A stretch of DNA of 64,000 nucleotides, from assembly GCA_963846005.1 (NCBI GenBank), contig CAWJUH010000003.1, positions 803,992 to 867,991 on the forward strand, given 5' to 3'. A program made the translations under genes and the position numbers. Origin of the DNA: an uncultured Actinomycetota bacterium. Lineage in GTDB: Bacteria > Actinomycetota > Actinomycetes > Streptosporangiales > Streptosporangiaceae. The notes under the pieces are model-generated. The model ran no database searches and was not told where the DNA came from. It saw nothing but the letters and a program-made list of their open reading frames with translations. Shown in pieces: positions 4,219-20,531 of the stretch. The first letter of the stretch is position 1. Every line of letters begins with the position of its first letter.

Positions 4219-4663
4219 ATGTCATTTGCACCACGCTTCGACCATGTCGGCATCACCGTCGCGGACCTCGACACGGTGACGGCGTTCTTCGTCGGGCTCG
4301 GTCTGGAGGTCGAGGGCACGCGGGCGTTCATCGAGGGCGAGTTCCTGGACACCGTCATTGGCATCCCCGGCGCCCGCACCGAGATTGTCATGCTGCGGCC
4401 GCCCGACGGAGGCACCCGGCTGGAACTGTCCAGCTTCGTCCGGCCCGGCCCCCAGCCCGGGTCGCCGGGCCGCGATGGCCAACGAGCTAGGGCTGCGCAA
4501 CGTCGCCTTCGAGGTTGACGACCTCCAGGCCGCCGTCGACCAGCTCGCCAAAGACGGCTACGGACTGGTCGGCGGCATCGGCCAGTACGAGCACATCTGG
4601 CGCATGGCCTACGTGCGCGGGCCGGAAGGAATCATCGTGTCCCTGGCCGAGCGCATCGGCTGA
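4219..4663 (+). pseudogene. VOC/glyoxalase family gene interrupted by apparent frameshift (two overlapping ORFs 4219..4518 and 4358..4663)
   Basis: N-terminal half (HVGITVADLDTVTAFFVGLGLEVEG...) and C-terminal half (NVAFEVDDLQAAVDQLAKDGYGLVGG...IIVSLAE) lie in different frames. Confidence 0.5.
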
Positions 4664-6101
4664 CGCGCCAATCGCCATAGACGATCCGCTTGCGACCCAC
4701 CCTCGGTGACAACCGGCGGCAGAGAGAACAGAACTGGCTATCGGGCACGCCCTCAAGGACTGCCAGCGAAACGCGCCGAATCGGCGTTATACGGGTGATC
4801 GTTGTCAAGGGGTTTGCTCTTCGGTGTCGACGCGCTTGATGAGGTTGATGAACAGGGCGGCTCGCGCGGGCTGCCCGTGGTCGCGGGCGTGGTCGCGCTG
4901 GCGGGTGAGGATGGGCAGGAACTCGGTGCTGGTGCGGAAGTAGGCGCAGGTTTCGCAGGCGGATTCCATGCGGCAGTCGAGTTCGGCGGGCCGGGTGCAC
5001 AGGCCGTTGCCGAGCATGCGGGCGTGGGCTTCGCGGCGTAGCTTCGGCCATGCCGGTGGTCTCGTAGTCGGCGGGCAGTTCGGGTGGCTGCCCGTAGAGC
5101 GCGTCGATCTTGGCGCTGACCGCGGCGTATTCGTCGGCGATGACCCGGTTGGCGATCCGCGCGTAGATCAGGGTCATCTCCATCTTGCGATGGCCGAGCA
5201 GGGCGGCGATGGCTTCCAGCCGCATGCCGCGGTTGATCGCCTGGGTGGCCAGCGTGTGCCGCAGCCGGTGCGGGTGCACCCCGGGGACGCCGGCGGCCCG
5301 GGCGACGCGGGCAACGATGCGGCCGATGACATAGCGGTCCAGCGGGCCGCGGTGGTCGGCGACCAGCGGGCGGTGGCGGCGGATGTGCTCAAGGCTGGCT
5401 GCGGTCCAGGCGGCGAGCAGCTCCACCAGCTCAGAATGCAGTGGCACGTAGCGATCGTTGCGGAGCTTGCCCAGCGGGATGCGCAGCCAGTGACCGGTGC
5501 CGATCTGCACGACCGCGTCCGCTTCCAGGTCCGCGAGCTCACCGGCTCGCATGCCAGTGCGCGCGAGTAGCTCGACGACGAGCCGGTCGCGGGGATCGTC
5601 TGCGGCCCGGGCGGCGGCCATCAGCCTGGTCGCGTCGCGATCGTCGAGGAACTTCGGCAGCGGCTCGGGCTTCTTGGGGATGTCCCCGGCGATGACAGGA
5701 TTGCGGGCCGGGGCGTCCTGCCAGTCCCACTCGATGATCCGCTCGAAGAACTGGCGCACGGTCCGCATCCGCTGCCGGTGCGTCTCAGCGGTGATCGTCT
5801 GGCTGCCTGCCCGGGGCTGGACGGCCAGCCATACCTTGTAGTCCTCGATGTCATCGCGGCGGATATCGCCGATCGCGGTGATGCCGGCATCGGTGATCAT
5901 CCAGCGGGCCAGCTGCCGCAGCGCGTTCTCCGCGGCCGCGACGCTGGCCGGGGCGAGGAAGGTGCCCAGCCGCTGCAGATACCGCTCGATCACCGCCGCA
6001 ACCTGCGGCGCCGCCGCCCGGATCTGCACCCACTGCGCGGCGGCGGCGCTGCCAGCCACCGCGCGGCCGGCGGCCGGAGCGCGCGCGGGCAGCGCGCTCA
6101 C
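4632..6101 (-). CDS. Tyrosine recombinase (phage integrase family); C-terminal end uncertain (possible frameshift near 5040)
   Basis: HRLRHTLAT box, LLGHRKMEMTLIYARI catalytic Tyr region; N-terminal SAM-like core-binding domain; tail after ~5040 is low-complexity while the alternative frame 4805..5017 carries a Cys-containing motif. Confidence 0.65.
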   Translation of the reverse strand: MSALPARAPAAGRAVAGSAAAAQWVQIRAAAPQVAAVIERYLQRLGTFLAPASVAAAENALRQLARWMITDAGITAIGDIRRDDIEDYKVWLAVQPRAGSQTITAETHRQRMRTVRQFFERIIEWDWQDAPARNPVIAGDIPKKPEPLPKFLDDRDATRLMAAARAADDPRDRLVVELLARTGMRAGELADLEADAVVQIGTGHWLRIPLGKLRNDRYVPLHSELVELLAAWTAASLEHIRRHRPLVADHRGPLDRYVIGRIVARVARAAGVPGVHPHRLRHTLATQAINRGMRLEAIAALLGHRKMEMTLIYARIANRVIADEYAAVSAKIDALYGQPPELPADYETTGMAEATPRSPRPHARQRPVHPARRTRLPHGIRLRNLRLLPHQHRVPAHPHPPARPRPRPRAARASRPVHQPHQARRHRRANPLTTITRITPIRRVSLAVLEGVPDSQFCSLCRRLSPRVGRKRIVYGDWRVSRCARPGTR

Positions 6102-7201
6102 CGGGCTGCCTCCTGCACCGCCAGCATCTCGCAGACGGCGGCGGTATCGGCGTCGATCAGCGCGGCGGCGCGTAGATACTCCCCGGCCAGCCAGTCATTG
6201 GCCAGGTGCAGGTAGACCCGGGTGGACTCAATCGACCGATGACCGGCCTGGGCCTGCACCGCCTCCAGTGCCATCCCCGCCTCCCGCAGCCGGGTCAGGC
6301 ACGTATGCCGCAGCTCATGGCAGGTCGCGTGCTCCAGGCCCGCGCGGCCGCGGGCGCCATCGAGGATCTCATCCAGCCCTTCCGCCGACAGCGGCATACC
6401 TCGCCGCGGACCCTTGAGCACCACGAACACCCGGTCCGTGGCCGCCCCGGCTGGCCGCTCGTCATGCAGGTAATCACCGAGCGCCTCGAAGAACCGGCCC
6501 GCGGCCGGGACCACCCGGTGATGACCGCCCTTGCCCTCCACCACGGCCAGCCGCCGGTCAGCGACCTGCACGTCCTCGAACCGCAACCCCAGCACCTCAC
6601 ACCGGCGCAGCCCGGCCAGCAGCATCGCCAGCACCATTGCCCGGTCCCGGTGCGTGCGCAACGCGGCGACCAGCCGGTCCGCCTCCCGCGGCGGCAAGAT
6701 CCTCGGCAGCGTCCGCGGCACCCGCACCAGCGGCACCGTCCGCGACCGCACCGACCCGCCCTGCCGCCGGGTCAGCAGCCCCCGCGGCACCGGATTGACC
6801 TGCACCGGCGTATCGCCCCGCGCCACCAGGTAGGCATATAGGCCCGACACCGACGACAGCCGGCGGGCGATCGTCCTCGCCGACAGCCCCGACTCACCAT
6901 CAGCCAGCCGCACCACAGTGCGGTCCCCGCGCTGATGGGCCAGGAACTCGAACACATCCGCCGCGGTGACCTCCACCGGCTTTCTCACGATCACCATGAA
7001 GAACGTCTTCAGGTCAAAGGCCACCGCCCGCAGCGTGTTCGGCCGGCACCGCCCCGCCACGAACTCCAGATACCGGTCCACCAGCCGCTCGCCCAGACGA
7101 TAACGGACCTGGCCAGACCCCGACACACTACGCACAAGACACGGGAAGCTGCTCATCCCAGCACCGTCCCAGCGCGGCCCGCAAGAACGCGGAAGCGACA
7201 C
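6098..7201 (-). CDS. Tyrosine recombinase, XerC/XerD-like; translationally coupled to the downstream recombinase by a 4-nt overlap
   Basis: HELRHTCLT box, AGHRSIESTRVYLHL catalytic Tyr region; 367 aa. Confidence 0.75.
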   Translation of the reverse strand: MSLPRSCGPRWDGAGMSSFPCLVRSVSGSGQVRYRLGERLVDRYLEFVAGRCRPNTLRAVAFDLKTFFMVIVRKPVEVTAADVFEFLAHQRGDRTVVRLADGESGLSARTIARRLSSVSGLYAYLVARGDTPVQVNPVPRGLLTRRQGGSVRSRTVPLVRVPRTLPRILPPREADRLVAALRTHRDRAMVLAMLLAGLRRCEVLGLRFEDVQVADRRLAVVEGKGGHHRVVPAAGRFFEALGDYLHDERPAGAATDRVFVVLKGPRRGMPLSAEGLDEILDGARGRAGLEHATCHELRHTCLTRLREAGMALEAVQAQAGHRSIESTRVYLHLANDWLAGEYLRAAALIDADTAAVCEMLAVQEAAR

Positions 7202-7441
7202 ACATCACCCGTGTATTAAGCGATCTGGCTGCACGGACGCTCAGGCTCCACGTCACATTCGATGACCAGTCGGGCTCTATAAGGAAGTAGCTCACGCCCG
7301 CGAACCGATTTCCTAGGTGCCCAGACCGACCCGGCTCAAGATCGGCTCCCAAAATCGGACATCGCCGCTCCCAAAATCAGACAATTCGGACCCGTGGCGA
7401 ACTTCATGATCGGAATACGGAGCGCTGACATGCGAATATGT

Positions 7442-7485
7442 GGTCGGGGTGGCCGGATTTGAACCGGCGGCCTCTTCGTCCCGAA
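7442..7485. repeat. 44-bp direct repeat identical to 24369..24412 (3' part of tRNA-Pro); distal att site of the integrated element
   Basis: Exact identity gtcggggtggccggatttgaaccggcggcctcttcgtcccgaa at both loci. Confidence 0.85.
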
Positions 7486-7911
7486 GCCAAGTTCCCGGCT
7501 CCCTGACGTCTGGACCTCGTGGGGTTGATCTGCTTGGCTCGTCTGCCAACGTCCGTGGGAGTCCACGAAGGAGCTAGGCGATTGTCACTCAGTTAGTCAC
7601 TCACTTCGGCACTGCCGGTGGAAGTGGTCACCTGCTTGCAAAGGTTGTGGCTGCACTCGCCTGACATACGGCTGCCCAGGTCAGGCGCTGTCGGACTTGC
7701 CCGTGAGTAACCGCGGCCGACTGCTAGCGGCCGTCCTAGCGGCACGCGGCGGGCACGACTGGCGATTTTCAAGATCGCTATGGCGCCGGTTTGGGTACTT
7801 GCCTGTGGCCTGCGCTGATGCCGCTAGGGCTGCCGAGCTCCGGCAAGCTCATCCCGTGCATATCCCGCACCTGATGAGCTGATCGGCGGCCGTGGCGGGA
7901 ACATAGCTGAC

Positions 7912-8460
7912 ATGAGTGATCTCATTGTCGTGACCGGGCCGCCGGGAGCTGGCAAGAGCACGGTCGCCCCGTCGTTGTCGCGACAGTTCGACCCCAGCGC
8001 CCTGGTGGCGGGGGACGTGTTCTTCGCCTTCATCGACCAGGGCTTTCTGGCGCCGTGGACCAGCGAGGCCCACCGTCAGAATGAGGTCGTCATCGACGCC
8101 GCAGCGGCTGCGGCAGGGCGCCTGGCCCGCGGCGGATACACGGTGGTCTATGACGGCGTGATCGGCCCGTGGTTCGTGCAGGCATTCGCGGCCGCCGCCG
8201 CCATCTCATCCCTCCACTACGTGATCTTGCTGCCGCCTGAGGAACTGTGCCTGGAACGAGTCCGCGTCAGGGCCGACCACGGCTTCCGGGACCAGGAGGC
8301 CGCCCGCCACATGTACCGGGAGTTCGCCACCGTCAGCGTTCATCCGCGGCACGTGCACGCCGGGACACAAGACGCAGCCAGCACCGCAACGATCTTGCGT
8401 GAACGAGTGCTCGATGGATCACTCCGCATAACCGCCGACTCCACCGATTCAGCCTCCTGA
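7912..8460 (+). CDS. P-loop NTPase / small kinase-like ATP-binding protein
   Basis: Walker A GPPGAGKST near N-terminus; 182 aa. Confidence 0.5.
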   Translation: MSDLIVVTGPPGAGKSTVAPSLSRQFDPSALVAGDVFFAFIDQGFLAPWTSEAHRQNEVVIDAAAAAAGRLARGGYTVVYDGVIGPWFVQAFAAAAAISSLHYVILLPPEELCLERVRVRADHGFRDQEAARHMYREFATVSVHPRHVHAGTQDAASTATILRERVLDGSLRITADSTDSAS

Positions 8461-9124
8461 TGCGTAGGCACCCGACAGGGCCGTCTGGGCTCGTTCAGAT
8501 CGGTCCGCGACCTTGGGCGCATCCTGGCTGGGCGTTCATTCCTGTTCGGATTCCCGCCAAGTCGTCCGCCCGGGTGGCTCCCAACTTGGCTCCCGACCGA
8601 TATGGGTCTGACCTCTTCCTCATCAGGGTGTCGGCTGACTGCCCAGGCGGTTGTCGGCGACGCTCGAATGTGGGGCTGTTGCCCCGGCGCCTATGGCCTC
8701 GTTTTCGAGCGGCGCCGACAGCGGTGGTTTCAGTCCTCTGTCCTGCGTTTACAGCACTAGTCTGCTCCCAGACCTGCCCTGTGATGTCCTGCGTCTGCCC
8801 GTACTTCCCAGGACTCTAAAGGCCACTGTAAGGCCAGCTCTAGGGAAGATCCGCTAGGAGCGGGGCCCGGCCAGGCTACTCGCCGATCAGCGCCTTGAAC
8901 GACGGCTCGTCGCGGATCGAGTTGAAGTCAGAGTCTTCGCGTGCATCTGCGCGGAGCTTCTCTGACGCGCCGACCGCGCTCCCCAAGTGATCGATCGCCT
9001 CGGCTGTGTGGCCGCTCAGGCTCTCGCTGCAGGGGAGGGAGGAAGGTGGATGCACGCGAAGATTCGCTTATCATCGAAGATGATTGCATGCAGTGCTTCG
9101 GAGGCGATGGGTGTGACAACGACG

Positions 9125-9556
9125 ATGGTCAGGATGATTATTGCGGTTTCGTCAGTATGCATGATTGCAGGCTGCGGGACAGCAGGCAATACAAGCCAAC
9201 CTTTGATGTCGCATAAAGCACATAAATTCATTACGGTTCCGACATCGTCAGCGCCGCCTGGCGCTCCAGGCCTGTCTGCCCTCACCAGAGGGCGTCTGGA
9301 GGCGGGCCGATTTAAGGGCAAGCCGTGTCTTTGGCTCGGGAACGGTACTCGCACGATGGCTGTTGTCTGGCCGCGAGGATTTAAAGCACGATGGCAGCGA
9401 GATAAGCTTGAGCTGCTGAATGCCCGGGGCAAGGTAGTTGCTGAGAGCGGCGAGATTATAAAGCTCGGGGGAGGAACGGCTCCTGCCCCGCAGGTCGCCT
9501 GCATGCTTGGTCATGAGCTAGCGTTCTACGCAAGCGGAGGCCCAGCGCGTGGCTAA
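9125..9556 (+). CDS. Putative lipoprotein (alternative start 9050)
   Basis: Signal peptide with lipobox MVRMIIAVSSVCMIAGC; lies in AT-richer island. Confidence 0.45.
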   Translation: MVRMIIAVSSVCMIAGCGTAGNTSQPLMSHKAHKFITVPTSSAPPGAPGLSALTRGRLEAGRFKGKPCLWLGNGTRTMAVVWPRGFKARWQRDKLELLNARGKVVAESGEIIKLGGGTAPAPQVACMLGHELAFYASGGPARG

Positions 9557-9575
9557 CGGCAGATGAGGCGATGCC

Positions 9576-10628
9576 TCATCCTACGGAAGTGCCGAAGAAC
9601 GAGTCGATGTTGCCTATTTGTTCATAGTAGCCGACGTGGCAATTGTCGCCTTGACTGTTACAGTCACCCCCTCCGATTGTAGTTCCGGCGATTTTGGCGC
9701 CGTTGCTGTCCCTCACAATCCATGGTCCTCCGCTGTCTCCTTCACTAACAACCGGAGTGTCGTCGTAGCCTGTGGATGTGACCCAGGCTCTGGTTATACC
9801 GTCGGAAAAGGCTACATACTGGTTGACACTTTGCACTGAGATGTCGTTTACTTCGCCCGTAAAGGCACTGTCTTGCGTGACCAAGTCGAAGGGCTGCGGA
9901 AAGGCAGTCCCGTCTTCAGCGTAGCTCGCCTGGCTTTTATCGCCCCCACTCCACACGTTCCATGAGTAGTTGCTGTTCGCGGAATTATGATCTATAAGCT
10001 CAGAATCGATGCAATTATTACAGAGCCGGACTTCAAAAACATTACCCATGTGCGGCCCGCCGGTCTGGCCAGACCTATCGCTTCTGTAAACATATTTATT
10101 AAGCTGCGGCTCGCAGTGACCAGCTGTTAGCATATAGTTATAACTGCCGATATGAACGATCGGTCCCCCGGTGCATTGGCTACTTGATGCGGGGATCAGA
10201 ATGAAGTCTCCTCCGAAGTATGGGGGCGTGTCATTTATCCGGTCTGCCGGTATGGGCCTGGGCATTGAAGTTTTTGAGACCACTACAGAATTACCGTACA
10301 GGGAATATAGTACATGAGCCGCCGCTTGGCTATAATGGGTGAGGCGAATTTCGACTTTGCCTGACCTGGGATCTGGACCCCACTGAGTCAGCTCTACACC
10401 TTTAGCTTTGAGGTTAGCCTCGCTGGCAGCGATGGATTGAGTAGTGACCTTATTCTGAGCCGACCCCCAGCCAAGCAAGGATGCCGGGTTGGGGTTATGG
10501 CCATCTCGCACTGTCTTCAGGCGAACCGACAGGGCTGCTGCCGACGTAGTTGCCATAGCAGGTCCGATCAGCAGGCAGGACACTGCAGAAATTGACACTG
10601 CAATTTTAACTAACTTAGGACTATTCAT
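9576..10628 (-). CDS. Secreted S1-family serine protease (chymotrypsin/streptogrisin-like)
   Basis: N-terminal signal peptide; catalytic His motif LTAGHC and Ser motif GDSGGP; visibly lower GC than flanks. Confidence 0.75.
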   Translation of the reverse strand: MNSPKLVKIAVSISAVSCLLIGPAMATTSAAALSVRLKTVRDGHNPNPASLLGWGSAQNKVTTQSIAASEANLKAKGVELTQWGPDPRSGKVEIRLTHYSQAAAHVLYSLYGNSVVVSKTSMPRPIPADRINDTPPYFGGDFILIPASSSQCTGGPIVHIGSYNYMLTAGHCEPQLNKYVYRSDRSGQTGGPHMGNVFEVRLCNNCIDSELIDHNSANSNYSWNVWSGGDKSQASYAEDGTAFPQPFDLVTQDSAFTGEVNDISVQSVNQYVAFSDGITRAWVTSTGYDDTPVVSEGDSGGPWIVRDSNGAKIAGTTIGGGDCNSQGDNCHVGYYEQIGNIDSFFGTSVG

Positions 10629-10971
10629 TACAGAATGATAAGTATTCAGGTCTCACAAGGCAAGACCCACAGGCCAGCTTCTTGCGCAACGCAGCTCTGC
10701 ATCGCTAGCAAAGACCTTCTGGCCTCGTCGCTGCGGAGACGCAACCCCCAGCCTTCTGATCCGTAGAGTGTGTCGGCCGTACGCGCGACCTGCCGTGTGC
10801 CGTCCGGGCAGCCATAACGGCTTTCGCTGGTGCGCATTGCTCGTCGCTATTGTGCGGTACTGTCCGGCCAGGATCCGGCCAGTCTCAGCCGGTGATCTCC
10901 TGGCGAGCGGGTGCGATCCCGGCTGCTGCACTTGCGTGCTCCACCAGCCGGCCTCGGCATACCGTGGGCCG

Positions 10972-11706
10972 ATGTTCGCTATTGAGGAACGAGAGCGAGT
11001 GCGGGGCCGTTTGCTGGAGCTGGCCGCCGCCGACCCCACCGTGAACGGAGCCGCGGTCACCGGCTCGCACGCGGCGGGCAGTTCCGACCGGTGGTCAGAT
11101 ATCGACCTGGCGCTCGCTATCCCCGGCTCGCTGGCCGCTTCGCTTGATCAGTGGACGGATGTGCTGACCCGGGATTTCGCCGCGGTGCATCACTGGGATC
11201 TTCGGTCAGGCTCGGCGGTGTACCGCGTGTTCTTGCTGCCGGGCTGGCTGGAGGTGGACATCGCGTTCATCCCGGCCGCTGAGTTCGGCCCGCTCGGACC
11301 GAACTGGCGCACTGTCTTCGGCGCCACCGTGCCGCTCGAACCATCCGGTCCGCCGGAGTTCAGCCAGCTAGCTGGCCTGGCCTGGCATCACGCCCTGCAC
11401 GCCCGAGTCAGCATGGAGCGGCAACGGTACCTGCAAGCTGAATACTGGATCGGCGCAATGCGCAGCCAGGTGATCGCTTTGACCTGCCTGCGGCTCGGGT
11501 ACCCGGACGCCCATGCCAAGACCGCGCACCGGCTGCCCGCCGATGTCACCGCCCGGCTGGCCAACACGCTCGTCAGATCGCTGGATCCGGCTGAGCTGCG
11601 CCGCGCCCTGGCCGCCGCCACGACAGCCCTGTCCGCCGAGCTTGAATACCCCAGTAATAGCCAGACCAGACGGCTGGACTCGATGCTGATCGAACGGACA
11701 CGCTGA
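10972..11706 (+). CDS. Nucleotidyltransferase domain protein (Pol-beta superfamily; possibly antibiotic NTase-like)
   Basis: GS-x10-DID signature (VTGSHAAGSSDRWSDIDLALAI); ATG at 10972. Confidence 0.55.
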   Translation: MFAIEERERVRGRLLELAAADPTVNGAAVTGSHAAGSSDRWSDIDLALAIPGSLAASLDQWTDVLTRDFAAVHHWDLRSGSAVYRVFLLPGWLEVDIAFIPAAEFGPLGPNWRTVFGATVPLEPSGPPEFSQLAGLAWHHALHARVSMERQRYLQAEYWIGAMRSQVIALTCLRLGYPDAHAKTAHRLPADVTARLANTLVRSLDPAELRRALAAATTALSAELEYPSNSQTRRLDSMLIERTR

Positions 11707-12004
11707 CCAGTTCCTTATCAGGCAAACCCGAGCACGCTTGCGACCATGGCCAACGTGGCCGCTGACCTGGGCGGACCGTCCCCGGCCGTCCGTGGCCGTC
11801 TGCCTGGTCGCGTGGTGATTGTTACGCAGTTGGTTACTCAGTCCGTGCCACGCCTCGATGCGCAAAGCATCTTGCCGTTAACGGCCCCGAAGGCCGCGCA
11901 AGGCTAGGCCTCCGATCTGCTGTCATGAATGCCCAGACAGTCGTTTGGTCCGCGACTGGTCCATGGCGGCTGACCGGGCCGTCGGCTGTGAAGACTATCG
12001 ACTG

Positions 12005-12487
12005 CTAGTCAGCCCGTTCATTGATACTCGCTATCTCTTCTACAAATCGCGATCTAAGCTCCGCCAAGGTTTGAGGCAGGCACGACTCATCACAGCGCTT
12101 CTTGGTCGCATTAGTTATGTAGGTGAACCAGCTGTAAACCGGATCCCTGCCATAATTAGGTATGATTGGGTCTTTCTGGAGATCTTTCCTGATTTGCGCG
12201 CTTGACACGCGACATTCAATGAACTTCTCTTGATTGACAGGGAGGCGCAGGCAACGCCACTTCCAAGATCCATTCGAAGAAACCACAACTGCAGGCCCGC
12301 CTATGTTTATCTCCCAAAAGGTGACAAGAGGTTCACGTTTCCCAAGGAACCGTCCAAATTCAATCGAAAGCTCGCTTAGGCACTTCGCGACTTCGTCGTA
12401 GTGGTACAGCAGACTGGCCACTGCACCCTCACGATCACGCTTCTTCTGCTCCAGCAGATCTAGTGCTTCATCCTCGATGCTCGGCAT
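12005..12487 (-). CDS. Hypothetical protein (low-GC cargo)
   Basis: 160-aa ORF in AT-richer island; no recognizable motif. Confidence 0.4.
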   Translation of the reverse strand: MPSIEDEALDLLEQKKRDREGAVASLLYHYDEVAKCLSELSIEFGRFLGKREPLVTFWEINIGGPAVVVSSNGSWKWRCLRLPVNQEKFIECRVSSAQIRKDLQKDPIIPNYGRDPVYSWFTYITNATKKRCDESCLPQTLAELRSRFVEEIASINERAD

Positions 12488-12864
12488 ACCCCATAACGTA
12501 AAGCACGGTCAGCACCCCCGCACGGGAGTCAAACGCGCAACTAACTGCTTAGGAGAACTTCAAGATCATCGATCCGACCTGTATTATTGCAGGTCATCGG
12601 CGGTTCCCATTGCGCATGAGTGCCCCTGAGGCAGCGGGTTTGCCTAGCACTGGGGCACGAACAGGGCACGACACCTGACCCTCTCGATGCGAACTCGCGG
12701 CCAGCCGGTCGATGATGGCGTTTGGGCAGGCCGCATGGTTGCTGACGGTCGCACCGGGAAAAATACGACTTTCGTCCGCTTCTGTCAAAGTTGTTTACTC
12801 TAGCAGCCCGCCAAGAAAACAAGTGTTGCTAGGCTTTTCATCGCCGTCTTTTAGGAGCAGAAAC

Positions 12865-13809
12865 TCAAGGCAGCGCAGAGTCTGCCGCGATATAGTAATA
12901 TTGAAGTATTCGTTCGCCTATTTCGGTGGGACTCCATTGCGTAGGGGACGTAAGGCCCACAGCGTCCCGTTCTGAGATTGCAGGCACAATTGGAGTCGAG
13001 TTATTGGCTGAGTAATATCCATGCGGAGAATGTGTATATGAGTCTGAAAGCGAGTCATTGCTTAGCTTTTTGGAATATTTCGCTAGCATGCTTGGAGAAT
13101 TATCGAATTGCTGCGCCAAGCCATGCCGCTGAAGCGTGGCGATCAGACTGGTCAGCACTTCTCGCAGTGAAGGTCTGGCTTCTTCAATTTGGTAGTTCGA
13201 CCATTTGCGCCGACCGATTGTCCAGCCGCTTCTGGTGAAATCTCCTGCAATGAACCCGTGGGGCCTAGTGTTGTGAATTGGAAATTTTTCATGCTTGATA
13301 GGACTGTCCTGTTTCCCGTCCTTCCCTTCGGATGGCACCCAGTTAACGATGAGCTCCAGTACAGATAGATGAGGGCGTTCCAAGTCTGCCATTGCAGGAA
13401 GGGCCAAATCAGCAAAGTATATCTGAGCTTCATCCGAAGCAATTAGGCCGCCCGCCAAGGCTCTGCCAAGTGCATGCACTTTAGGAGGCCAAGCCGTACT
13501 AGATGCCGAAGTCATCGCGTTCATTGCTATGAGCCGCGTACGTTCGGAAGCGTTAATCAGACCTGCGAGTTTCTCAGGGTCACACTCTGCCGCTATCGAG
13601 GCGCTGGTAAGCATTCCCTTAACTCGCCGTCGCGCGTCAGATCGGAATTCCCCCACGGCTTTGTTGAGGAAGTCCTCTAGATATGGACTGGAAAGTGCAC
13701 CAATTGCGATCCCATCGATTCCGCCTAGCCTTGCGCCTGCGACGACTGCGGAGGCATCAGCCACAGCTCTTATAAGGCGACTTGGTTCCTGATCCTCATC
13801 TGACGTCAC
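12865..13809 (-). CDS. Hypothetical protein (low-GC cargo)
   Basis: 314-aa ORF in AT-richer island; no recognizable motif. Confidence 0.45.
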   Translation of the reverse strand: MTSDEDQEPSRLIRAVADASAVVAGARLGGIDGIAIGALSSPYLEDFLNKAVGEFRSDARRRVKGMLTSASIAAECDPEKLAGLINASERTRLIAMNAMTSASSTAWPPKVHALGRALAGGLIASDEAQIYFADLALPAMADLERPHLSVLELIVNWVPSEGKDGKQDSPIKHEKFPIHNTRPHGFIAGDFTRSGWTIGRRKWSNYQIEEARPSLREVLTSLIATLQRHGLAQQFDNSPSMLAKYSKKLSNDSLSDSYTHSPHGYYSANNSTPIVPAISERDAVGLTSPTQWSPTEIGERILQYYYIAADSALP

Positions 13810-14404
13810 AGGGCATAGCCTAATCCGTCTTGACGATGATTCGAGCTCTCTCGATGGTTATCCGACTCAGCCACAGCTTCCCCGTCCTCCCTGGTAGGTG
13901 CCGAGATCTTGCCGGGGAAGGTCGCAGTCAAGGGGCGGCGCGTGCGCCGATCGCGTAGCGACGCGCCCTTGGGCGCGCCCTTTACTGTGACCTTTCTCCG
14001 GTGAGAGGATGCCCGGCGTGTGGAGGACGGCTCCTTCCGCCACACTGCGGGCTGCGCGTGGGCTATCCGTGCCGGGTGTTCGTGGCGGCCGGGCTGTGGT
14101 GCGGGCCGGGGCGGGGCGGACCTGCCTTGCGGCAGTTGCCCGCGCCGTGCCTCCCCAGGCTAAGGCAGCGGGCAGAACTGCCGCCCCGGCGCAGACAGTA
14201 GCCCCGCCACCCGGCACGCTGACGCCAAGGCGCCCTTGCTGCTTTTACTCGACGCGCTGCTCGGCTCAGGCTTTCGTGCGTGCCTGGCCGTCGGCGCCGG
14301 GCCGGGGTGCGGGCCGTCTGGCGCGCCCGCAAGGGCGTGCCCTTGAAGCTGTAGAGAAAATCGTCACAGTTCACAGGCACTAATTCGATGAAGCATTCGA
14401 CTGG

Positions 14405-15586
14405 TCAGGCGAGTGGAGGGCTAGGCCCGTCGCCTCCGATGGTGGTTCCTGTCGGCCATAGCTTCTCCAGCTCGGCGGGCGTGAGCGGATCCCGGTAAGC
14501 GGCTTGCAGGACACTGCGCCAGGCGTCGGCGGGCGCTTGCGCGAGCTGGGTGAACCAGTCAATGCCGGCGGGATAAGACCACTGGTAGGACCGCAGCAAG
14601 GGGTCTGCTCCCCGGTCAGTGAGCATGTCAGCGATCTCGGCTTCCGTCCAGAACGGAACATGGCCGCTCGCATAGGCGGCGCACTGGTCGATGCTGGCTC
14701 CGGAGTTCACCGCGATGTGCAGGGCCGCCCGTACGAGCTGGGTGTAGTGATCGATCCGGACTCTGGTCATCAGCAGCTTGTCGTCCGGCGCGACGAACAG
14801 CGGCAGCGTCTGGCCGAGTCCTTCCAGCAGTACCTGCTGGGGTGCGTGTACCGACAGCAGCCGGACCCACGGCACTGGACCGGCCGCGCAGCGCTGGGCG
14901 TAGCTGGCTCCCTGGAGACCGTGGCCCAGGATCTCGTGCAGGGCGAACTGGCGGGCGTGAGCTTCGGTGAACCGGGCTTCTTTGAGGTTGAGGCGCAGTC
15001 GAACGTCCGGTCCGCTGCCGTCGGTCCAGAAGGCCCAGTAGGCGTTGACGGTGGTGGTCTCGATGGTCAACTCATACGGCGCGGTGGCTCCCGTAAGTTC
15101 CCGGACGACCGGCTCGTATCTGAGGGCCGCGTCCCCGATGGCACCGGGGGCATCGGATGCGTCGATCGGCCTTTCGATGTGTTCCTGGTCTTTGCGGGTG
15201 CGGGCGTTCCAGCCGATGCCAAGGTCGGCCAGCTGGCGGCGTGCCAGCTCTCCTGCGTGCTGGATGTAGTCCTCAGGCCAGCCCAGGGCGTGACAGCCCT
15301 GGGTGCCGAAGATGTAGCTGTCCAGGTCGGCGCGCTGGCCCATCAGCTCCCGTAGGTAGAGCAGATGAGCCCCGGTCCGCTCGGCCAGCATCGGTTCGCC
15401 GCTGGCCTCGGCTTGCTGCTTCAATGCCGCTAGCCGTTGGTAGGTGGTCAGCCGGTCAGCAGGCTTGATGTCCTCGCTCGCGGACTGCGGGTGGCAGTCG
15501 TAGTCGATCACGGCGGGCGCACCGCGCGCCAGCTCGTGTTCGTGCCAGGCCCGCAACGCCCGCTCGATCTGGTCACGAAGCGGCAC
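14405..15586 (-). CDS. Putative zinc metallopeptidase (HExxH motif; DUF1704/ImmA-IrrE-like gluzincin is a guess)
   Basis: FALHEILGHGLQ motif; 393 aa; 14-nt overlap with the upstream gene. Confidence 0.45.
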   Translation of the reverse strand: MPLRDQIERALRAWHEHELARGAPAVIDYDCHPQSASEDIKPADRLTTYQRLAALKQQAEASGEPMLAERTGAHLLYLRELMGQRADLDSYIFGTQGCHALGWPEDYIQHAGELARRQLADLGIGWNARTRKDQEHIERPIDASDAPGAIGDAALRYEPVVRELTGATAPYELTIETTTVNAYWAFWTDGSGPDVRLRLNLKEARFTEAHARQFALHEILGHGLQGASYAQRCAAGPVPWVRLLSVHAPQQVLLEGLGQTLPLFVAPDDKLLMTRVRIDHYTQLVRAALHIAVNSGASIDQCAAYASGHVPFWTEAEIADMLTDRGADPLLRSYQWSYPAGIDWFTQLAQAPADAWRSVLQAAYRDPLTPAELEKLWPTGTTIGGDGPSPPLA

Positions 15587-16727
15587 TATCGGTATCCCAT
15601 CTCAGCTCAACGATCTGCCCGGGCCGCAGGTAGTCCGCGGCCAGGGTCAGGCTCACGCCGTGGTCATCGTAGTCCCACAGCAGCCCCTCGCTGACCGGCA
15701 TTTCCGACCCATCCGGCCGCTCGACCGTGGCCGCGCATTCGCTGAGCCGCTTGATATTCAGGTGCCGGACCCGCAGCGTGTAGTGGCGGGTGTAGCGCGG
15801 CATCGTTTGCCGCCAGTACCACTCGTCATGAAATGACCCGCCCTCGCACGTATACCGGATCACCGTGCGCTCTCCCGGTCCGAGCGGCGGCGAGATCTTG
15901 AACGCGAACTTGGCCAGCGATCCCGCGTCGTGAATGCGCTGGATCACCACGGCCCGGTCGTTGTGCTTGGTCGCCTTGATGACAATCGGCGCGTAGGTGT
16001 ACTGGAACCAGACCTCACGCGGCATGCGCACGAGTGGCTGCTCACCGAGATTGAGCAGATCATGCTCATATAGCACGTGCACCCGGCCGTGATCATCGAT
16101 CTCCAGGCTCAGGCTCAGCTCCAGCTCGACCACGTTGCCCGCCAGCGCGGCGAGCTGCCGGGTCTCAGTGTCCGACAACCGGAGCTGGCGGCTCAGCTCG
16201 ACTAGCCGCTTCCCTAGCTTCCGGGCACTGACGCTGTCCTGATCGCGCACATAATCGCTGATCGCGCTGGCCACTATCTGACGCGCACCGACAGTCCGGT
16301 CATCGGCGCCGGTTGGCCCCCATGCGGGCGGTGAGGTATCCGGCTGCCGCAATCCGGTATCGATCGCGCCCAGAACCTGTCCGATGTCCTTGCGCGCCAG
16401 CGCGCCCTGCCCACGTGACCCGGCCAGATCACCGTCATTGCTACCTGCGGGCTGGAAAAGCTGCGCAATCGTCCAGTCGGGAAACATCACCTCCAGCACC
16501 CGGCAATGGTGAGAGAAAGGCAGCCGTTTCACACTCCCGGACAGCCAGCGCTGATACTGCGCCCGGCTCGGAGACGACCCAGCCAGATCCGGGTCCACCA
16601 CGTGAGCGGCCTTGTCGTACTCCGCGCAGAACGTCGCATACGACTGCCAATGACGCTGTTCTAGCAGGACCTTCAACCGGATCGGCGATGACTTCACGCT
16701 GCCCTCCCGTGATGTCTCAGCTATCAC
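15573..16727 (-). CDS. Hypothetical protein with possible N-terminal HTH (XRE-like) region
   Basis: 384 aa; N-terminus IRLKVLLEQRHWQSYATFCAEYDKAA resembles an HTH; divergent from the + strand operon starting at 16900. Confidence 0.4.
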   Translation of the reverse strand: MIAETSREGSVKSSPIRLKVLLEQRHWQSYATFCAEYDKAAHVVDPDLAGSSPSRAQYQRWLSGSVKRLPFSHHCRVLEVMFPDWTIAQLFQPAGSNDGDLAGSRGQGALARKDIGQVLGAIDTGLRQPDTSPPAWGPTGADDRTVGARQIVASAISDYVRDQDSVSARKLGKRLVELSRQLRLSDTETRQLAALAGNVVELELSLSLEIDDHGRVHVLYEHDLLNLGEQPLVRMPREVWFQYTYAPIVIKATKHNDRAVVIQRIHDAGSLAKFAFKISPPLGPGERTVIRYTCEGGSFHDEWYWRQTMPRYTRHYTLRVRHLNIKRLSECAATVERPDGSEMPVSEGLLWDYDDHGVSLTLAADYLRPGQIVELRWDTDSAAS

Positions 16728-16899
16728 CCCACCCTACCAAGGATGAGACATCTATGCGACATGGCGCACGCGGAAGAGGCGGAAACGACTCCCTACGACA
16801 CAACGGCGCAACACGGGCTTGGCTAATGCTCGTGTCATGGCCAGAAAGGCCAACCACGAGTCAGCCCAGCCAAAGGGTTGCCGAAGGAGAGGCAAGATC

Positions 16900-17238
16900 A
16901 TGCGACTTCTGATCGACACGAGCAGCGTCCAGTTTCGGGTGGCCGGTATGCCGAAGGAGCGTCCGGACTACAAGGACAAGGAGCGGCAGGCGACCACGCG
17001 CGAAGGGCAGCCGATCTGGACGGTGCGCCTGGACGCGATCGACACCGTGCGGGAGACCAAAGAAACCATCTGGGTCGAGGTGGCTGGCAACGAGCCCAAG
17101 CTGACCTTCGATGGCTTCGCCTCGGTCACCGGCCTGGTGTTCGCACCGTGGGTCGGGCGTGACGGCAAGATCCGCCGCTCATTCCGCGCCGACACCGTCG
17201 AGCCCGCCCCGGCCGCGAAGGCCGTGCACGCGGCCTGA
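16900..17238 (+). CDS. Hypothetical protein, first gene of AICE transfer/replication operon
   Basis: ATG at 16900 with GAAGGAGAGG RBS. Confidence 0.5.
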   Translation: MRLLIDTSSVQFRVAGMPKERPDYKDKERQATTREGQPIWTVRLDAIDTVRETKETIWVEVAGNEPKLTFDGFASVTGLVFAPWVGRDGKIRRSFRADTVEPAPAAKAVHAA

Positions 17239-17295
17239 GCCGTCCCCGGCCAGGCGGAACCATCCCCTACCTCGCGATCAGACCAAGGAGACCCC
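17227..17295 (+). promoter_or_regulatory. Conserved intergenic module copy 1 (box CCCCTACCTCGCGA plus AAGGAGA RBS)
   Basis: Shares a 30-40 bp core with copies at 17665..17755 and 18745..18829. Confidence 0.5.
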
Positions 17296-17661
17296 ATGAC
17301 CAGCATCCGCATCACCGGAATCGACTCCAGATTCGACGACCTGACCCCGGCGGAGTTCCCGCCGCTGCCGATCGGCGCGCTTGTCGCCGGGACGCTCAAC
17401 CTGCTGGAGGAATCCGGAGGGCTGCCCCAGCCGGTGTACCTCACCGTGTCCGACTCGCAGTCGGTGGATCTGCTGTTCGCCCCCGACCCGTCCAGCCTGC
17501 GGGCTATCGCCCGGTGGGCGATGCGCTTCGGCGGCGTCATGACCAGTGAGCCCCACCGGGGCAAGAGCGGCCCGGAGACCTGGTGCCGCGTCCAGTTCGA
17601 CTACTACGGCGTGGCCGTCTGTGCCTTCGCCCACATCCCGGTCTGCGCGACCACGCTCTGA
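17296..17661 (+). CDS. Hypothetical protein
   Basis: ATG preceded by AAGGAGA within a conserved intergenic module. Confidence 0.5.
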   Translation: MTSIRITGIDSRFDDLTPAEFPPLPIGALVAGTLNLLEESGGLPQPVYLTVSDSQSVDLLFAPDPSSLRAIARWAMRFGGVMTSEPHRGKSGPETWCRVQFDYYGVAVCAFAHIPVCATTL

Positions 17662-17664
17662 TAC

Positions 17665-17755
17665 CCGGTGCCGGGCTGGAGGGCTGCCATCCCCCCCGTC
17701 CCGGCCAGCCACCACCCGATCCCTACCTCGCGAACGACGATCAAGGAGAACTGTT
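17665..17755 (+). promoter_or_regulatory. Conserved intergenic module copy 2 (nested hairpin plus box plus RBS)
   Basis: gccgggctggagggctgccatccccc...cccggccagcca...tccctacctcgcgaa...aaggagaact. Confidence 0.5.
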
Positions 17756-18739
17756 ATGCCAGCAAACGTCGAGTCCATGTTCTCGGTCCGCCAGATGCCC
17801 TGGCACCGGGAAGGCACCGTCCTCGCGGATTACCCCGGCGACTGGGCCGAGGCCCGCAAGCTTGCCGGGCTGAACTGGGACCCGGTGACCACCGGGGTCT
17901 ACGCCTTCACTGGCATCAACATTGACGCCACCACGCACTACGAGCCGATCGAGGGCTGGCAGTGCATCATCCGCTCCGATACCGGGGCCGTCCTGTCCAT
18001 CAACCGCGATACCTACACCGTGATCAACCACGGCGCGATGGGCGAGATCGTCGAAGCCGTCCTCGCCCAGCCCAACGTGAAGTGGGAGACCGCCGGGGTC
18101 CTGGACGGCGGCCGGTCGGTGTGGTGCCTGGCCCTGCTCGACGAGCCCGTCGAGCTGCCCGGCGATGACAGCCCGACCCTGCCCTACCTGGCGATCACCA
18201 ACCGGCACGACGGCACCGGCTCATGCGCCCTGCGGGCCACCGCGGTCCGCATCGTCTGCGCCAACACCTTCCGCGCCGCCGAACTCGAAGGCGAACGGAC
18301 CGGCGCCACCTTCTCGTTCATCCACAAGTCGAGCTGGCGAAACCGGATCGAGGAAGCCCGCCGCGCCGTCACCGGCGCTCAGGCCGAGATGCGCCGCTAC
18401 ACCGAACTCGCCCGAGAACTGCTGGCCATCCCCATCACCGGAAAGCAGCGGGAGCTGTTCATCACCGAATTCATTCCCAAGCCTCCCGAGGGGCTGATCA
18501 CCGACCGGGTGGCCCGCAACGTCGAGGAAGCCCGCAGCGCGCTGCGGCTGCTCTTCCAGTCCACCACCAACGAGCAGATCGCCGGTACCGCCTACGGCCT
18601 GGTCCAGGCCGCCGGGGAGTACCTCGATCATGTCCGCATCGCGCGGTCCTGGGAGACCCGGCTCAACCGGACCCTGATCCGGCCCGAGCCGCTCAAGCAC
18701 CGCGCATTGTCCCTGGCTCGAGAGGTCACCACCGCCTGA
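17756..18739 (+). CDS. DUF932 / phage-plasmid-like protein (TIGR03299-like)
   Basis: ATG at 17756 preceded by a conserved module with AAGGAGA; ~327 aa; typical ICE/AICE neighbourhood. Confidence 0.5.
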   Translation: MPANVESMFSVRQMPWHREGTVLADYPGDWAEARKLAGLNWDPVTTGVYAFTGINIDATTHYEPIEGWQCIIRSDTGAVLSINRDTYTVINHGAMGEIVEAVLAQPNVKWETAGVLDGGRSVWCLALLDEPVELPGDDSPTLPYLAITNRHDGTGSCALRATAVRIVCANTFRAAELEGERTGATFSFIHKSSWRNRIEEARRAVTGAQAEMRRYTELARELLAIPITGKQRELFITEFIPKPPEGLITDRVARNVEEARSALRLLFQSTTNEQIAGTAYGLVQAAGEYLDHVRIARSWETRLNRTLIRPEPLKHRALSLAREVTTA

Positions 18740-18744
18740 CAGCA

Positions 18745-18829
18745 AGATGCCGGGCTGGGGGACTGCCATCCCCCGGCCCGGCCAGCCAGAACCATCCCCT
18801 ACCTCGCGAAAAGCAAAGGAGAACTCGGC
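18745..18829 (+). promoter_or_regulatory. Conserved intergenic module copy 3 (nested hairpin plus box plus RBS)
   Basis: gccgggctgggggactgccatcccccggcccggccagccagaaccatcccctacctcgcgaaaagcaaaggagaact. Confidence 0.5.
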
Positions 18830-19063
18830 ATGTCCGATCCTACCTTCCCCGCCCCCGGCCGGGTGGTCCTCGACTGGCGGCGCGGCCAGATCGGCCCGCT
18901 CGCCCCGTGCGTGATCTGCGGGCGGCTGGCCATCTGCCGCTCCCCGGGCAAGAACGCGCCCTGCCACAAGCGGTGCGCCGAAACCTGGATCACCACCCAC
19001 GCCAGCCCGCGTGACCAGCGCAGGCTGATCCGCGCCAACACTCCGCGAGGTGGTGCCAGGTGA
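18830..19063 (+). CDS. Small Cys-rich protein
   Basis: CVICGRLAICRSPGKNAPCHKRC; preceded by conserved module. Confidence 0.45.
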   Translation: MSDPTFPAPGRVVLDWRRGQIGPLAPCVICGRLAICRSPGKNAPCHKRCAETWITTHASPRDQRRLIRANTPRGGAR

Positions 19064-19443
19064 GCGGCTTCCGGGTCATCTACCACGCGACCGTCTGTCC
19101 CGACTGCGGATCAGATGAGGTCACCGAGCACGACATCGTCATGACTGACGGCACGGCCGAGACCGCGCTGACTTGCGGCCAGTGCGGCGCAGCATGGCCG
19201 GTGGCCTGCGTCGCTGAGAACCTACAGCCCGCTAGCCCCGACCCGGCATGCGCACCGCACCTGGCCTTGCGGATCGACGCCAAACCGCCCGGCACTGCCG
19301 CTGAGCACCGCCGCTACTGGTGCCCCCGCTGCGACGCCTACCTGACCGGCACGGAACTGGCCACCACGAGCGCGTTGCACTACACGCCCGGCCCCGACCG
19401 CATCATCACCCGCGCCGATCTCACCCCGGCAGGCCGGTCATGA
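19060..19443 (+). CDS. Zinc-ribbon-containing hypothetical protein
   Basis: CPDCGS...CGQCG and CPRCD motifs; start overlaps upstream stop. Confidence 0.45.
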   Translation: MSGFRVIYHATVCPDCGSDEVTEHDIVMTDGTAETALTCGQCGAAWPVACVAENLQPASPDPACAPHLALRIDAKPPGTAAEHRRYWCPRCDAYLTGTELATTSALHYTPGPDRIITRADLTPAGRS

Positions 19444-19835
19444 CCGCCCGCGTCCCCGCCCTCGACGCTATCCAGGCCCGCGGACTGCGGGTGGTGTCCT
19501 ACGACCCGGACGGCAGCCGGCACGGCCTGCCCACTTACCCCTGGCGATGGGCACCCGCTGGGCTGCTCACCCGCCGCCAGCTCCGCGCCAAGGGCCTGCG
19601 CCCCGGCGGCCAGGAAATCTGTGCGCAGATCCTGTGGCGCCGCGGCAAGCGCGTCGCCTACCTCTACGCCGAGCAACTCGCCCTGCCCAAGCGCACCGCG
19701 ACCGCCGCGCAGCTCGCCGCGGTCGCCAAGGCCCTGACCGCCCGGCGCACCTGCCCGGCCTGCGGCCAGCTCAAGTCCTACTACATCCCCCGATCCACCG
19801 GCGAATGCCTCAACTGCACCCCCGGAAGGCGGTGA
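19440..19835 (+). CDS. Hypothetical protein with C-terminal CxxC...CxxC motif
   Basis: ATGA start/stop overlap with upstream gene; RRTCPACGQ...ECLNC. Confidence 0.45.
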   Translation: MTARVPALDAIQARGLRVVSYDPDGSRHGLPTYPWRWAPAGLLTRRQLRAKGLRPGGQEICAQILWRRGKRVAYLYAEQLALPKRTATAAQLAAVAKALTARRTCPACGQLKSYYIPRSTGECLNCTPGRR

Positions 19836-19841
19836 CACCCG

Positions 19842-20531
19842 ATGTCCGCGAACACCCCTGGCCGTGGCACTGGCCGTAACCGGCGCGCCAGCAGCCCCTA
19901 CATCATCGATGACCTGTTCGTCACCATGCACCGCTCGGCCGCCGGAACGGCCTGGCGGTGGCGCACCGAACTCACCCTCCTCACCGCAACCATGGCGCTC
20001 GGATGGCGACTGACGGTGATCATGACTTTCACCTGGGCCGCGATCACTATCGCTGCGGGCCTGGCCGTCGTGCTGGCGCTGCCGCCAACCCGGCGGTTCA
20101 CGGTGCGCCGGTTCTGGTGCGTGCTGGCCCGCCACCGGCTGCACAAGCTGTGCTGGGAAGCCCACCTGCATACCCGCTCCGGCAGGCTGCCGCTGATCTT
20201 GTGGACCCGGCCGACCAAGGTCGGAGAACGGGCCTGGATCGTGTGCCGGGCCGGGATCTGCGCCGAGGACTTCGAGAACAACCTCGGCGAGATCCGCTCC
20301 GCCTGCTACGCCCGCGACGCGCGGGTCACCAGCAACACCCGCTGGTCCCACCTGATCACCGTCGATGTGATCCGCCGCGACACCCTCGCCGCCCGCCACC
20401 AGGTGGCATCACCCCTGCCCCGCCTGCCCCGGCCCGCGCCGGACCCGCAGGCCAGTTCCCGGCGGCCGTCGTGGCCCGACCGGCCCGCCCTGCCCGGCCC
20501 CGACACGGCCGACATCATCCCCATCCGCTAG
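19842..20531 (+). CDS. Membrane protein (Spd/Tra N-terminal-like)
   Basis: Hydrophobic segments (LTLLTATMALGWRLTVIMTFTWAAITIAAGLAVVLAL). Confidence 0.45.
   Translation: MSANTPGRGTGRNRRASSPYIIDDLFVTMHRSAAGTAWRWRTELTLLTATMALGWRLTVIMTFTWAAITIAAGLAVVLALPPTRRFTVRRFWCVLARHRLHKLCWEAHLHTRSGRLPLILWTRPTKVGERAWIVCRAGICAEDFENNLGEIRSACYARDARVTSNTRWSHLITVDVIRRDTLAARHQVASPLPRLPRPAPDPQASSRRPSWPDRPALPGPDTADIIPIR

Follow-up and report, generated by a model that had tools for sequence, protein, structure and literature searches.

A probable pSAM2/RepSA-type integrative and conjugative element in the 3' half of a tRNA-Pro(CGG) gene of a Streptosporangiaceae-like actinobacterium

The integrative and conjugative elements of actinomycetes (AICEs) are defined by a set of modules and by the order of their genes, and their prototype is pSAM2, a 10.9-kb element of Streptomyces ambofaciens (PMC2440964). 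A further AICE, pACPL of Actinoplanes sp. SE50/110, is 13.6 kb in length (PMC3364876). In islands that target tRNA genes (tDNAs), it is the regenerated tDNA and the displaced fragment of the original one that mark the island ends (PMC4383910). Here we describe a 64-kb stretch of DNA (positions 803,992 to 867,991 of contig CAWJUH010000003.1, assembly GCA_963846005.1; hereafter the window, to which all unlabelled coordinates refer) in which an interval bounded by two copies of a 44-bp sequence is very probably a pSAM2/RepSA-type AICE integrated in a gene for tRNA-Pro(CGG), in its 3' half, in a Streptosporangiaceae-like actinobacterium. The interval has the module set by which AICEs are recognised: two identical attachment (att) segments at the 3' end of a tRNA gene that has remained intact, a tyrosine integrase gene beside that tRNA with an excisionase gene directly upstream, a RepSA-family initiator, a single FtsK/SpoIIIE-domain transfer protein with no type IV secretion system (T4SS), and arm-type repeats, the predicted sites of the integrase (Int), that flank the identity segment in attP. 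This arrangement is well known and ordinary, and the nearest described analogues are pACPL and pSAM2.

We compared the window with these two elements by published description. Like the window element, pSAM2 uses a tyrosine integrase and Xis to enter a tRNA-Pro gene, its identity segment (58 bp) is the 3' part of that tRNA, and it encodes a RepSA initiator (after which PF20199 is named) and a small FtsK-like transfer protein, TraSA. Unlike pSAM2, which resides in Streptomyces, the window element has a Streptosporangiaceae-like host, has no KorSA (GntR) or Pif (NUDIX) that we could find, and has a RepSA that falls below the NCBIfam equivalog threshold. pACPL likewise sits at the 3' end of a tRNA-Pro, with an identity segment of 43 nt as compared with 44 here, and shares the int-xis-repSA order and an FtsK/SpoIIIE-type tra gene (PMC3364876); at 16.9 kb the window element differs from it in lacking the NUDIX, Pra and reg genes and in carrying ~9 kb of different, mostly unannotatable cargo. 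The window element is the same in principle as the tDNA islands catalogued by Islander (PMC4383910), of which it represents a conjugative, replicative subtype. Repeated use of a tRNA-Pro gene has also been described: AICESav3708 and AICESav3728 share a 44-bp att site, and the SCO6806 island has a 43-bp direct repeat in tRNA-Pro (PMC2440964). As in those cases the same tRNA-Pro hot spot is reused here, with relics or mini-elements in three of the related loci described below (L081, L122 and L123). Unlike the tandem AICEs, the window holds two cores only, and an earlier event is hinted at solely by an orphan arm-type motif at 11821.

The repeat, GGTCGGGGTGGCCGGATTTGAACCGGCGGCCTCTTCGTCCCGAA, lies on the + strand at positions 7442-7485 and again, in direct orientation, at 24369-24412. 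An exact 44-bp identity had been claimed for it in the initial annotation, and our direct reading of both loci gives 44 matches out of 44, with no further mismatch. The bases just outside the copies differ on both sides (T at 7441 vs. G at 24368, and G at 7486 vs. C at 24413), so the exact repeat is 44 bp long. With a spacing of 16,927 bp between the copies, the element consists of one repeat plus an interior of 16,883 bp (7486-24368), or ~16.9 kb. A pattern search that allowed up to three mismatches found two copies of the 44-mer in the window (none expected, as judged from 100 shuffles), and a scan that tolerated up to 12 substitutions in 44 positions found no third core there; the window therefore contains no recognisable tandem array.

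ARAGORN detected one tRNA gene in the window, tRNA-Pro(CGG) at 24369-24444 on the minus strand, and an Rfam search of positions 4000-26000 returned no RNA other than this tRNA-Pro (RF00005, 64.1 bits, E 4.5e-12). This intact gene, the regenerated integration target, includes the right copy of the repeat, as the initial annotation had stated. Within it, positions 24369-24412 (minus strand) form the tRNA-proximal att identity segment, or core, and the same 44-mer is found beside the integrase gene in 22 related loci. The left copy (7442-7485, minus strand) is the distal identity segment. It had been taken to be an isolated 3' fragment of a tRNA, and that assignment holds: we looked with ARAGORN and with Rfam for a second complete tRNA and found none there, so the left copy, a displaced tRNA-Pro 3' fragment, is not part of a second tRNA. 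In the tRNA sense the repeat reads TTCGGGA-CGAAG-AGGCC-GCCGG-TTCAAAT-CCGGC-CACCCCG-A-CC. It starts with the first base of the anticodon loop (TTCGGGA) and ends with the discriminator A followed by two more bases, CC. An extent from anticodon loop to discriminator had been proposed; the start is as proposed, and the end lies two bases past the discriminator.

If base 7441, which completes an encoded CCA, is added, positions 7441-7485 form a 45-bp match to the native tRNA 3' ends of two related loci, L081 and L082. The regenerated tRNA-Pro gene (24367-24371) reads A-CCC-AGG and the displaced fragment (7439-7443) retains A-CCA; the native ending in L081, L082 and L086 is CACCCCG-A-CCA, and the A-CCC variant is also present in five related elements (L104, L117, L122, L123 and L176). 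The regenerated tRNA-Pro would need 3' trimming and CCA addition, and its A-CCC ending is probably harmless.

Arm-type sites are found on both sides of the predicted attP. In pACPL, two 21-nt repeats, GTCACCCAGTTAGT(T/C)AC(C/T)CAG, are reported to flank the identity segment and have been likened to the arm-type sites of pSAM2 (PMC3364876), which, according to Raynal et al. 2002 as cited there, are bound by Int and required for recombination. In the window, the near (integrase-side) site at 24301-24321 (+ strand) is a 21-nt tandem, GTCACTCAG-A-TAGTCACTCAG (that is, GTCACTCAGATAGTCACTCAG), which overlaps the int stop codon and lies 48 bp from the core. The far site (7584-7615, + strand), 98 bp inside the distal core, consists of GTCACTCAGTTAGTCACTCAC (21 nt at 7584-7604) together with an overlapping degenerate third unit. 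Each of the two 21-mers shares 19 of its 21 positions with GTCACCCAGTTAGTYACYCAG, the arm-type repeat of pACPL/pSAM2 (PMC3364876), and a degenerate form of the motif, GTYACNCAGWTRGTYACYC, has exactly three matches in the window, where none is expected by chance. The near-arm repeat has been kept at the same place over the int stop codon in 25 related elements, in which the surrounding spacer varies freely. The far arm is available in three elements (the window, L081 and L123); it lies at an equal distance from the core in all three, and its C/T variant is in each case that of the near arm of the same element. Such co-variation would be the pattern expected of a protein-binding site, with binding by Int itself a prediction.

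The core suggests a position for strand exchange. Adjoining it at 7486-7491 (+ strand) we read GCCAAG, a candidate attP-derived core-type half site, and GCCA(A/G)G is found at the same place beside the core in L081 and L123. On either side of the 7-bp anticodon-loop segment, CTTCG and GCCAAG make up an imperfect inverted repeat, which is the usual form of an attP core, and GCCAAG may serve as a core-binding half site for Int. Because att identity stops exactly at the loop boundary, strand exchange most likely takes place in the anticodon loop. This would place the attP in the anticodon-centred class of Islander (class A), in which identity runs from the anticodon loop to the 3' end (PMC4383910).

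The genes expected of an AICE follow in order along the + strand towards the tRNA. The integrase gene int (23156-24301) encodes 381 amino acids with a match to Pfam PF00589 (81.4 bits, profile positions 2-167 of 172) and with the motifs ARTEEL, LRHSF and GHS...EMIY; it is convergent on the tRNA, and its stop codon lies 67 bp from the tRNA and core. Abutting int is a gene for a 69-amino-acid Xis-like excisionase or DNA-binding protein (22947-23156; Pfam HTH_17, PF12728, 39.1 bits), and the same xis-int order is seen in L082, L181 and L182. The repSA gene (21433-22902) encodes a rolling-circle-type replication initiator that matches Pfam RepSA (PF20199) with 477 bits (E 6.9e-143; cut-off 34). 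The tra gene (20603-21436) encodes an FtsK/SpoIIIE-domain DNA translocase of ~277 amino acids (Pfam PF01580, 43.9 bits) with NCBIfam matches to FtsK and to plasmid TraB, and 76% amino acid identity to its counterpart in L110, a locus that is colinear with window positions 16896-24322 at both the nucleotide and the protein level. All four are full-length open reading frames (ORFs) with complete domains. Profile scans of the window ORFs revealed no member of the T4SS, relaxase or VirB4 families. The GC content of the element interior is 64.7%, as compared with 73.9% for the right flank.

Comparison with related loci, fetched through homologues of a metallophosphoesterase gene in the right flank, places the element at a recurrently used site. 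The closest relatives are metagenome-assembled genomes of Streptosporangiaceae, to which the host is accordingly likened. The right flank is conserved chromosome that encodes the metallophosphoesterase, a class A penicillin-binding protein (PBP), WhiB and ArsA-like ATPases, and the same tRNA follows the metallophosphoesterase gene in L081, L082 and L086-L095. The tRNA-Pro locus occurs in these relatives in three states: empty, occupied by another AICE, or with a decayed relic. Ten contigs of a relative (L086-L095; 72% amino acid identity) have an empty attB, with the same gene order (WhiB, PBP, metallophosphoesterase, tRNA-Pro(CGG)), one 44-mer and no integrase. In L082 (79%) an AICE with the content int-xis-RepSA-FtsK...GntR-NUDIX directly follows the tRNA, and its int and xis are ~77% identical to those of the window at the nucleotide level. 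L081, the closest relative (84%; GCA_963731285.1, 11010-17466), has two 44-mers 6.4 kb apart, one of them with a mismatch, and no integrase gene between them; it retains both arms and, with the near arm, the last 390 bp of int, and represents the same element family in a decayed, relic form. (In place of the former interior, L081 has IS110 and IS4 transposases, an aminoglycoside phosphotransferase (APH) gene and a DUF1707 gene.) The homology of this relic to the left arm of the window stops at window position 7440, the outer edge of the repeat, which agrees with the element boundaries at 7486 and 24368 given in the initial annotation. The relic int end is 95.9% identical to the window, as compared with 81.6% for the adjoining chromosome, which suggests, at the level of sequence divergence, that the element is younger than the split between the window and L081 hosts. 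Taken with the integrase beside the tRNA and the arm-type sites, the empty, occupied and relic states of this one locus bear out the earlier proposal of tRNA-targeted site-specific integration.

The integrase itself points to the same target. A metagenome scan found 189 relatives of the integrase, for which 80 loci were returned; we counted target sites among relatives with at least 75% identity and at least ~250 bp of downstream DNA. In 22 of these 26, a convergent tRNA-Pro(CGG) gene with the identical 44-mer lies 70-130 bp after the stop codon. Of the other four, one is at a tRNA-Val, and in three an insertion of other DNA lies at or within the int 3' end. More distant integrases (61-74% identity) are found at tRNA-Ile, tRNA-Val, tRNA-Thr, tRNA-Pro(GGG) or tRNA-Pro(CGG), and switching of targets is usual within an integrase clade. 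The best match from a cultured organism, in Nonomuraea gerenzanensis (64%), lies ~1.1 kb from a tRNA-Ile, without the 44-mer.

Some of the loci recovered with the integrase show other arrangements of the same core. In L122 (1665-4779) and L123 (8143-11257) a mini-element of 3.07 kb lies between two exact 44-mers; it contains an integrase gene (76% identical) and ~1.8 kb only, with both arm-type sites intact, and may be a minimal integrative, mobilisable derivative. In L160 (2954-2997) and L163 (4150-4193) the integrase-proximal 44-mer gives way, from the anticodon-loop boundary, to unrelated DNA with no 5' half of a tRNA. This junction is the one expected if a tandem element is present there or if integration took place into a displaced fragment.

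These features can be assembled into a proposed course of events. The circular form would carry an attP made up of the 44-bp tRNA 3' segment, the imperfect inverted repeat around the 7-bp loop, and 21-nt arms on both sides. Its junction is predicted to read ...CTCTGACCTGG-GTCGGGG...CCCGAA-GCCAAGTTCCC..., such that the circle would run from the near arm, ...GTCACTCAGATAGTCACTCAG...CTCTGACCTGG, through the 44-mer to GCCAAGTTCCCGGCTCC. The integrase would have carried out recombination between this attP and the tRNA gene on the chromosome, exchanging strands at the anticodon loop, so that the element-borne copy would now complete the tRNA and the original 3' end would have been moved 16.9 kb away. 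Int and the HTH_17 excisionase should be able to reverse the integration, and the predicted restored attB is GCGAATATGT, the 44-mer, and then CGAAGCGCGCTGCC. RepSA would replicate the excised circle, and the FtsK-like Tra protein would move double-stranded DNA to a recipient.

Several observations weigh against the view that the whole interval is a single, functional pSAM2-type AICE. Cargo unseen in related elements takes up over half of the element's length (7.6-16.9 kb). The NCBIfam model rep_init_RepSA scores the initiator at 394 bits, below its equivalog cut-off of 700, which shows, as far as profile scores go, a member of the RepSA family and not an equivalog of pSAM2 RepSA. Pfam scans found no GntR (KorSA) or NUDIX (Pif) domain in any element ORF, and the element does not have the pSAM2-type regulator set of korSA (GntR), pra and pif (NUDIX). 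L082 and L181 do carry GntR and/or NUDIX domains; this set is typical of AICEs, not universal, and the regulatory position in the window element is taken by a SCO3933-family regulator and a different two-gene module. In no close relative are the left and right flanks of the window directly joined, the left flank being a further mobile unit of its own. An arm-type motif lies inside the cargo, and the element may accordingly have a composite history. Finally, that the element is active today is an inference.

Some of these concerns bear on two alternatives that we consider unlikely, though deserving of consideration. The interval might be an immobile relic, with the repeats as att scars left by an AICE that can neither excise nor transfer any more, for instance because regulatory or transfer functions have been lost. 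The absence of GntR/KorSA and NUDIX/Pif would fit such a state, as would the precedents at the same site (the L081 relic) and in L122/L123 (the 3-kb mini-element). However, the window cores agree at all 44 positions (in the L081 relic a mismatch has already arisen), int, xis, repSA and tra are full-length with complete domains, both arm sites are intact, and the SCO3933-family regulator and the conserved two-gene module stand in regulatory position; an immobile relic is thus an improbable description of the locus. Slightly less probable again is a composite island, produced by successive integrations at the same tRNA with loss of the intervening core, in which the left repeat and the left part, from 7.5 to ~11.8 (or up to 16.9) kb, would stem from an older element and the current AICE would be only 16.9-24.4 kb. 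What suggests it is the third GTYACNCAGWTRGTYACYC match, GTTACGCAGTTGGTTACTC at 11821-11839 (+ strand), which has no core beside it and whose context, GGTGATTGT, resembles the far arm. In addition, neither L110, the closest backbone relative, nor any other locus has the cargo at 7643-16895; two patches of the cargo have a GC content of 53%; tandem AICEs with a common 44-bp att site are documented (PMC2440964); and L081 exemplifies decay at such loci. Against it, no third core is present even at 12 substitutions in 44, and no relic of int or xis is detectable in the cargo with tblastn. The 11821 motif has the variant TTAC, whereas the arms at 7584 and 24301 both have TCACTCA, so the outermost arms form the cognate pair; moreover, alignment of the 11.8-kb region to the arms reaches only the ~95th-99th percentile of random window segments. 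The 11821 motif may be a relic of an earlier related element, and it is possible that it is a functional internal Int-binding site. Since the outer arms match each other and there is no third core, we treat the whole interval as one element now; even were its history composite, the 44-bp copies would stay att sites and the whole interval could excise as a unit.

Two further explanations carry almost no weight. A temperate prophage at tRNA-Pro would show the same pattern of a tyrosine integrase and excisionase beside a tRNA, the integrase is distantly similar (~30%) to mycobacteriophage integrases, and a DUF932 protein of the element matches a PHROG of unknown function. Nevertheless, searches of all element ORFs against Pfam and PHROGs found no terminase, portal, capsid, tail or lysis genes, RepSA and an FtsK-type Tra are plasmid and AICE functions, and 16.9 kb is small for an actinophage, which makes a prophage highly improbable. 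Still further from plausible is a chance repeat or a local tRNA duplication with no integration at all, for which nothing speaks beyond the bare existence of the repeat. It is refuted by the zero matches expected in shuffles, by the exact start of the repeat at the anticodon loop and its end at the tRNA 3' end, by the integrase arm sites that flank it, and by the occurrence of the same 44-mer at the ends of related elements in many metagenomes. An integrated AICE thus remains the reading that we strongly favour.

The exact boundaries, 7442/7485 and 24369/24412, allow ~17 kb of the window to be marked as horizontally acquired DNA. In an uncultured Streptosporangiaceae-like lineage, integration has recurred at the tRNA-Pro(CGG) gene that lies downstream of the whiB-ponA-metallophosphoesterase cluster; this hot spot is found without an insert, with an element, with a decayed one and with a mini-element. 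A defined attP/attB system is made up of the integrase, the 44-bp core and the 21-nt arms, and it could be put to use for integration in these poorly tractable actinobacteria in the way that pSAM2 is used in Streptomyces. The residual novelty of the locus lies not in its att sites but in the unannotated cargo and in a recurrent peptidase-like two-gene module, both described below.

From 211 bp leftwards of the left copy, the DNA is not native chromosome but a mobile unit of its own with two recombinase genes. The unit (4772-7230) has two overlapping minus-strand genes for tyrosine recombinases of 367 (6098-7201) and ~445-489 (4632-6101) amino acids, whose XerC/D-like matches are well below cut-offs. 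Relatives with 61-90% amino acid identity are spread across Actinomycetota and Acidimicrobiia. Rhodococcus opacus DSM 44188 and the metagenome-assembled genome CAVYMN01 each contain near-identical copies (99.97% over 2.95 kb), and such within-genome copies define a unit of 2.5-3.0 kb, in which we found no terminal inverted repeats. From these copies it looks like an active transposable unit. Recombinase-in-trio (RIT) elements have three adjacent overlapping tyrosine recombinase genes, ritA, ritB and ritC, in ~3.5 kb (PMC3414803); we rejected the unit as a RIT element, as it has two recombinase genes and not three, and it may be Tn554-like without tnpC. A link between the unit and AICE att or int regions was likewise rejected, there being no homologue in any AICE locus. 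The gene to the left of the left repeat had also been considered as a marker for the empty site, but it is a multi-copy tyrosine recombinase gene whose 80 loci were uninformative on the tRNA locus. For positions 7231-7441, a search for the native left flank found no fetched locus that matches beyond short motifs.

A bipartite motif, GCTCCCA...CGCTCCCA(A/G)AATC(A/G)GACA, occurs at 7345-7378 in the window and at L122 1589, L123 8067, L160 3126, L163 4322 and L165 1693. In the window, L122 and L123 it lies 65-100 bp outside the left att copy; in L160 and L163 a core copy without the tRNA 5' half has it on its opposite side. The GCTCCCA(A/G)AATC motif was rejected as a piece of the two-recombinase unit, of which it is not part; it may belong to conserved native flank or be the arm of a different family of elements with this tRNA as target.

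Upstream of tra, the backbone operon (16837-20531, + strand) contains genes for the SCO3933-family regulator (16837-17238), the DUF932 protein with the PHROG match mentioned above (17756-18739) and an RRQRL zinc-binding protein (19440-19835), as well as a 229-amino-acid ORF (19842-20531), a 121-amino-acid ORF and two zinc-ribbon ORFs of 77 and 127 amino acids.

The element-specific cargo (7643-14400) includes an AAA_33 kinase-like gene (7912-8460), a gene for a secreted trypsin-like protease on the minus strand (9576-10628; TAGHC and GDSGGP motifs, with a weak Trypsin match), a weak nucleotidyltransferase match (10768-11706) and, on the minus strand, orphan genes at 12005-12487 and 12865-13809 that match nothing in any library. 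Most cargo ORFs had no match in Pfam (even at relaxed thresholds), NCBIfam, PADLOC, PHROGs or PDB sequences. The two ~53% GC patches, at 9000-10650 and 12000-14000, stand in a context of 65-74% GC; the first holds the trypsin-like protease gene and the second the two orphan genes, and they are probably secondary acquisitions from a donor of lower GC content.

No part of window positions 7643-16895 matched any fetched related locus, except for one 150-bp hairpin at 13877-14030. This ~150-nt imperfect palindrome is predicted to fold into a single long hairpin (-92.7 kcal/mol, z = -4.3, + strand). Copies with 76% identity are present at L125 2881-3025 and L137 564-708, in or beside the truncated xis of relatives that target tRNA-Val. 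We rejected the idea that 13877-14030 is the xis relic of a second element, as a tblastn search of the whole cargo revealed nothing similar to xis or int at the protein level. The hairpin has no Rfam match and may be a repeat resembling miniature inverted-repeat transposable elements (MITE-like) or a structured RNA.

Between cargo and backbone operon, and divergent from the latter, lie two overlapping genes on the minus strand (14405-16697) whose products, of 374 and 393 amino acids, have no family matches. AlphaFold2 predicts for the 374-amino-acid product a helical N-domain and an M1-aminopeptidase-like beta-sandwich (pLDDT 87; fold match to the M1 N-domain), and for the 393-amino-acid product a gluzincin-like HExxH protein (HEILGH) whose fold matches DUF885, M32 carboxypeptidase and MATCAP (pLDDT 92). 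A homologous gene pair occupies the same distal, divergent position in the AICEs L180 (6901-9200), L181 (Actinomadura sp. WMMA1423; 8926-11164) and L182 (8883-11191), and the module is also present at L177 6829-9164. In all, at least four different AICEs carry the module distally, in divergent orientation to the transfer operon. It is tempting, as a guess to which we give little credence, to see in it a previously undescribed AICE control or host-interaction system. It could, for example, be a protease-based switch, for which ImmR/ImmA of ICEBs1 offers an analogue in logic, or an exclusion or defence module that replaces the missing KorSA/Pif pair. Homologous pairs are also found outside any recognisable AICE, in Nocardia terpenica and in Saccharothrix.

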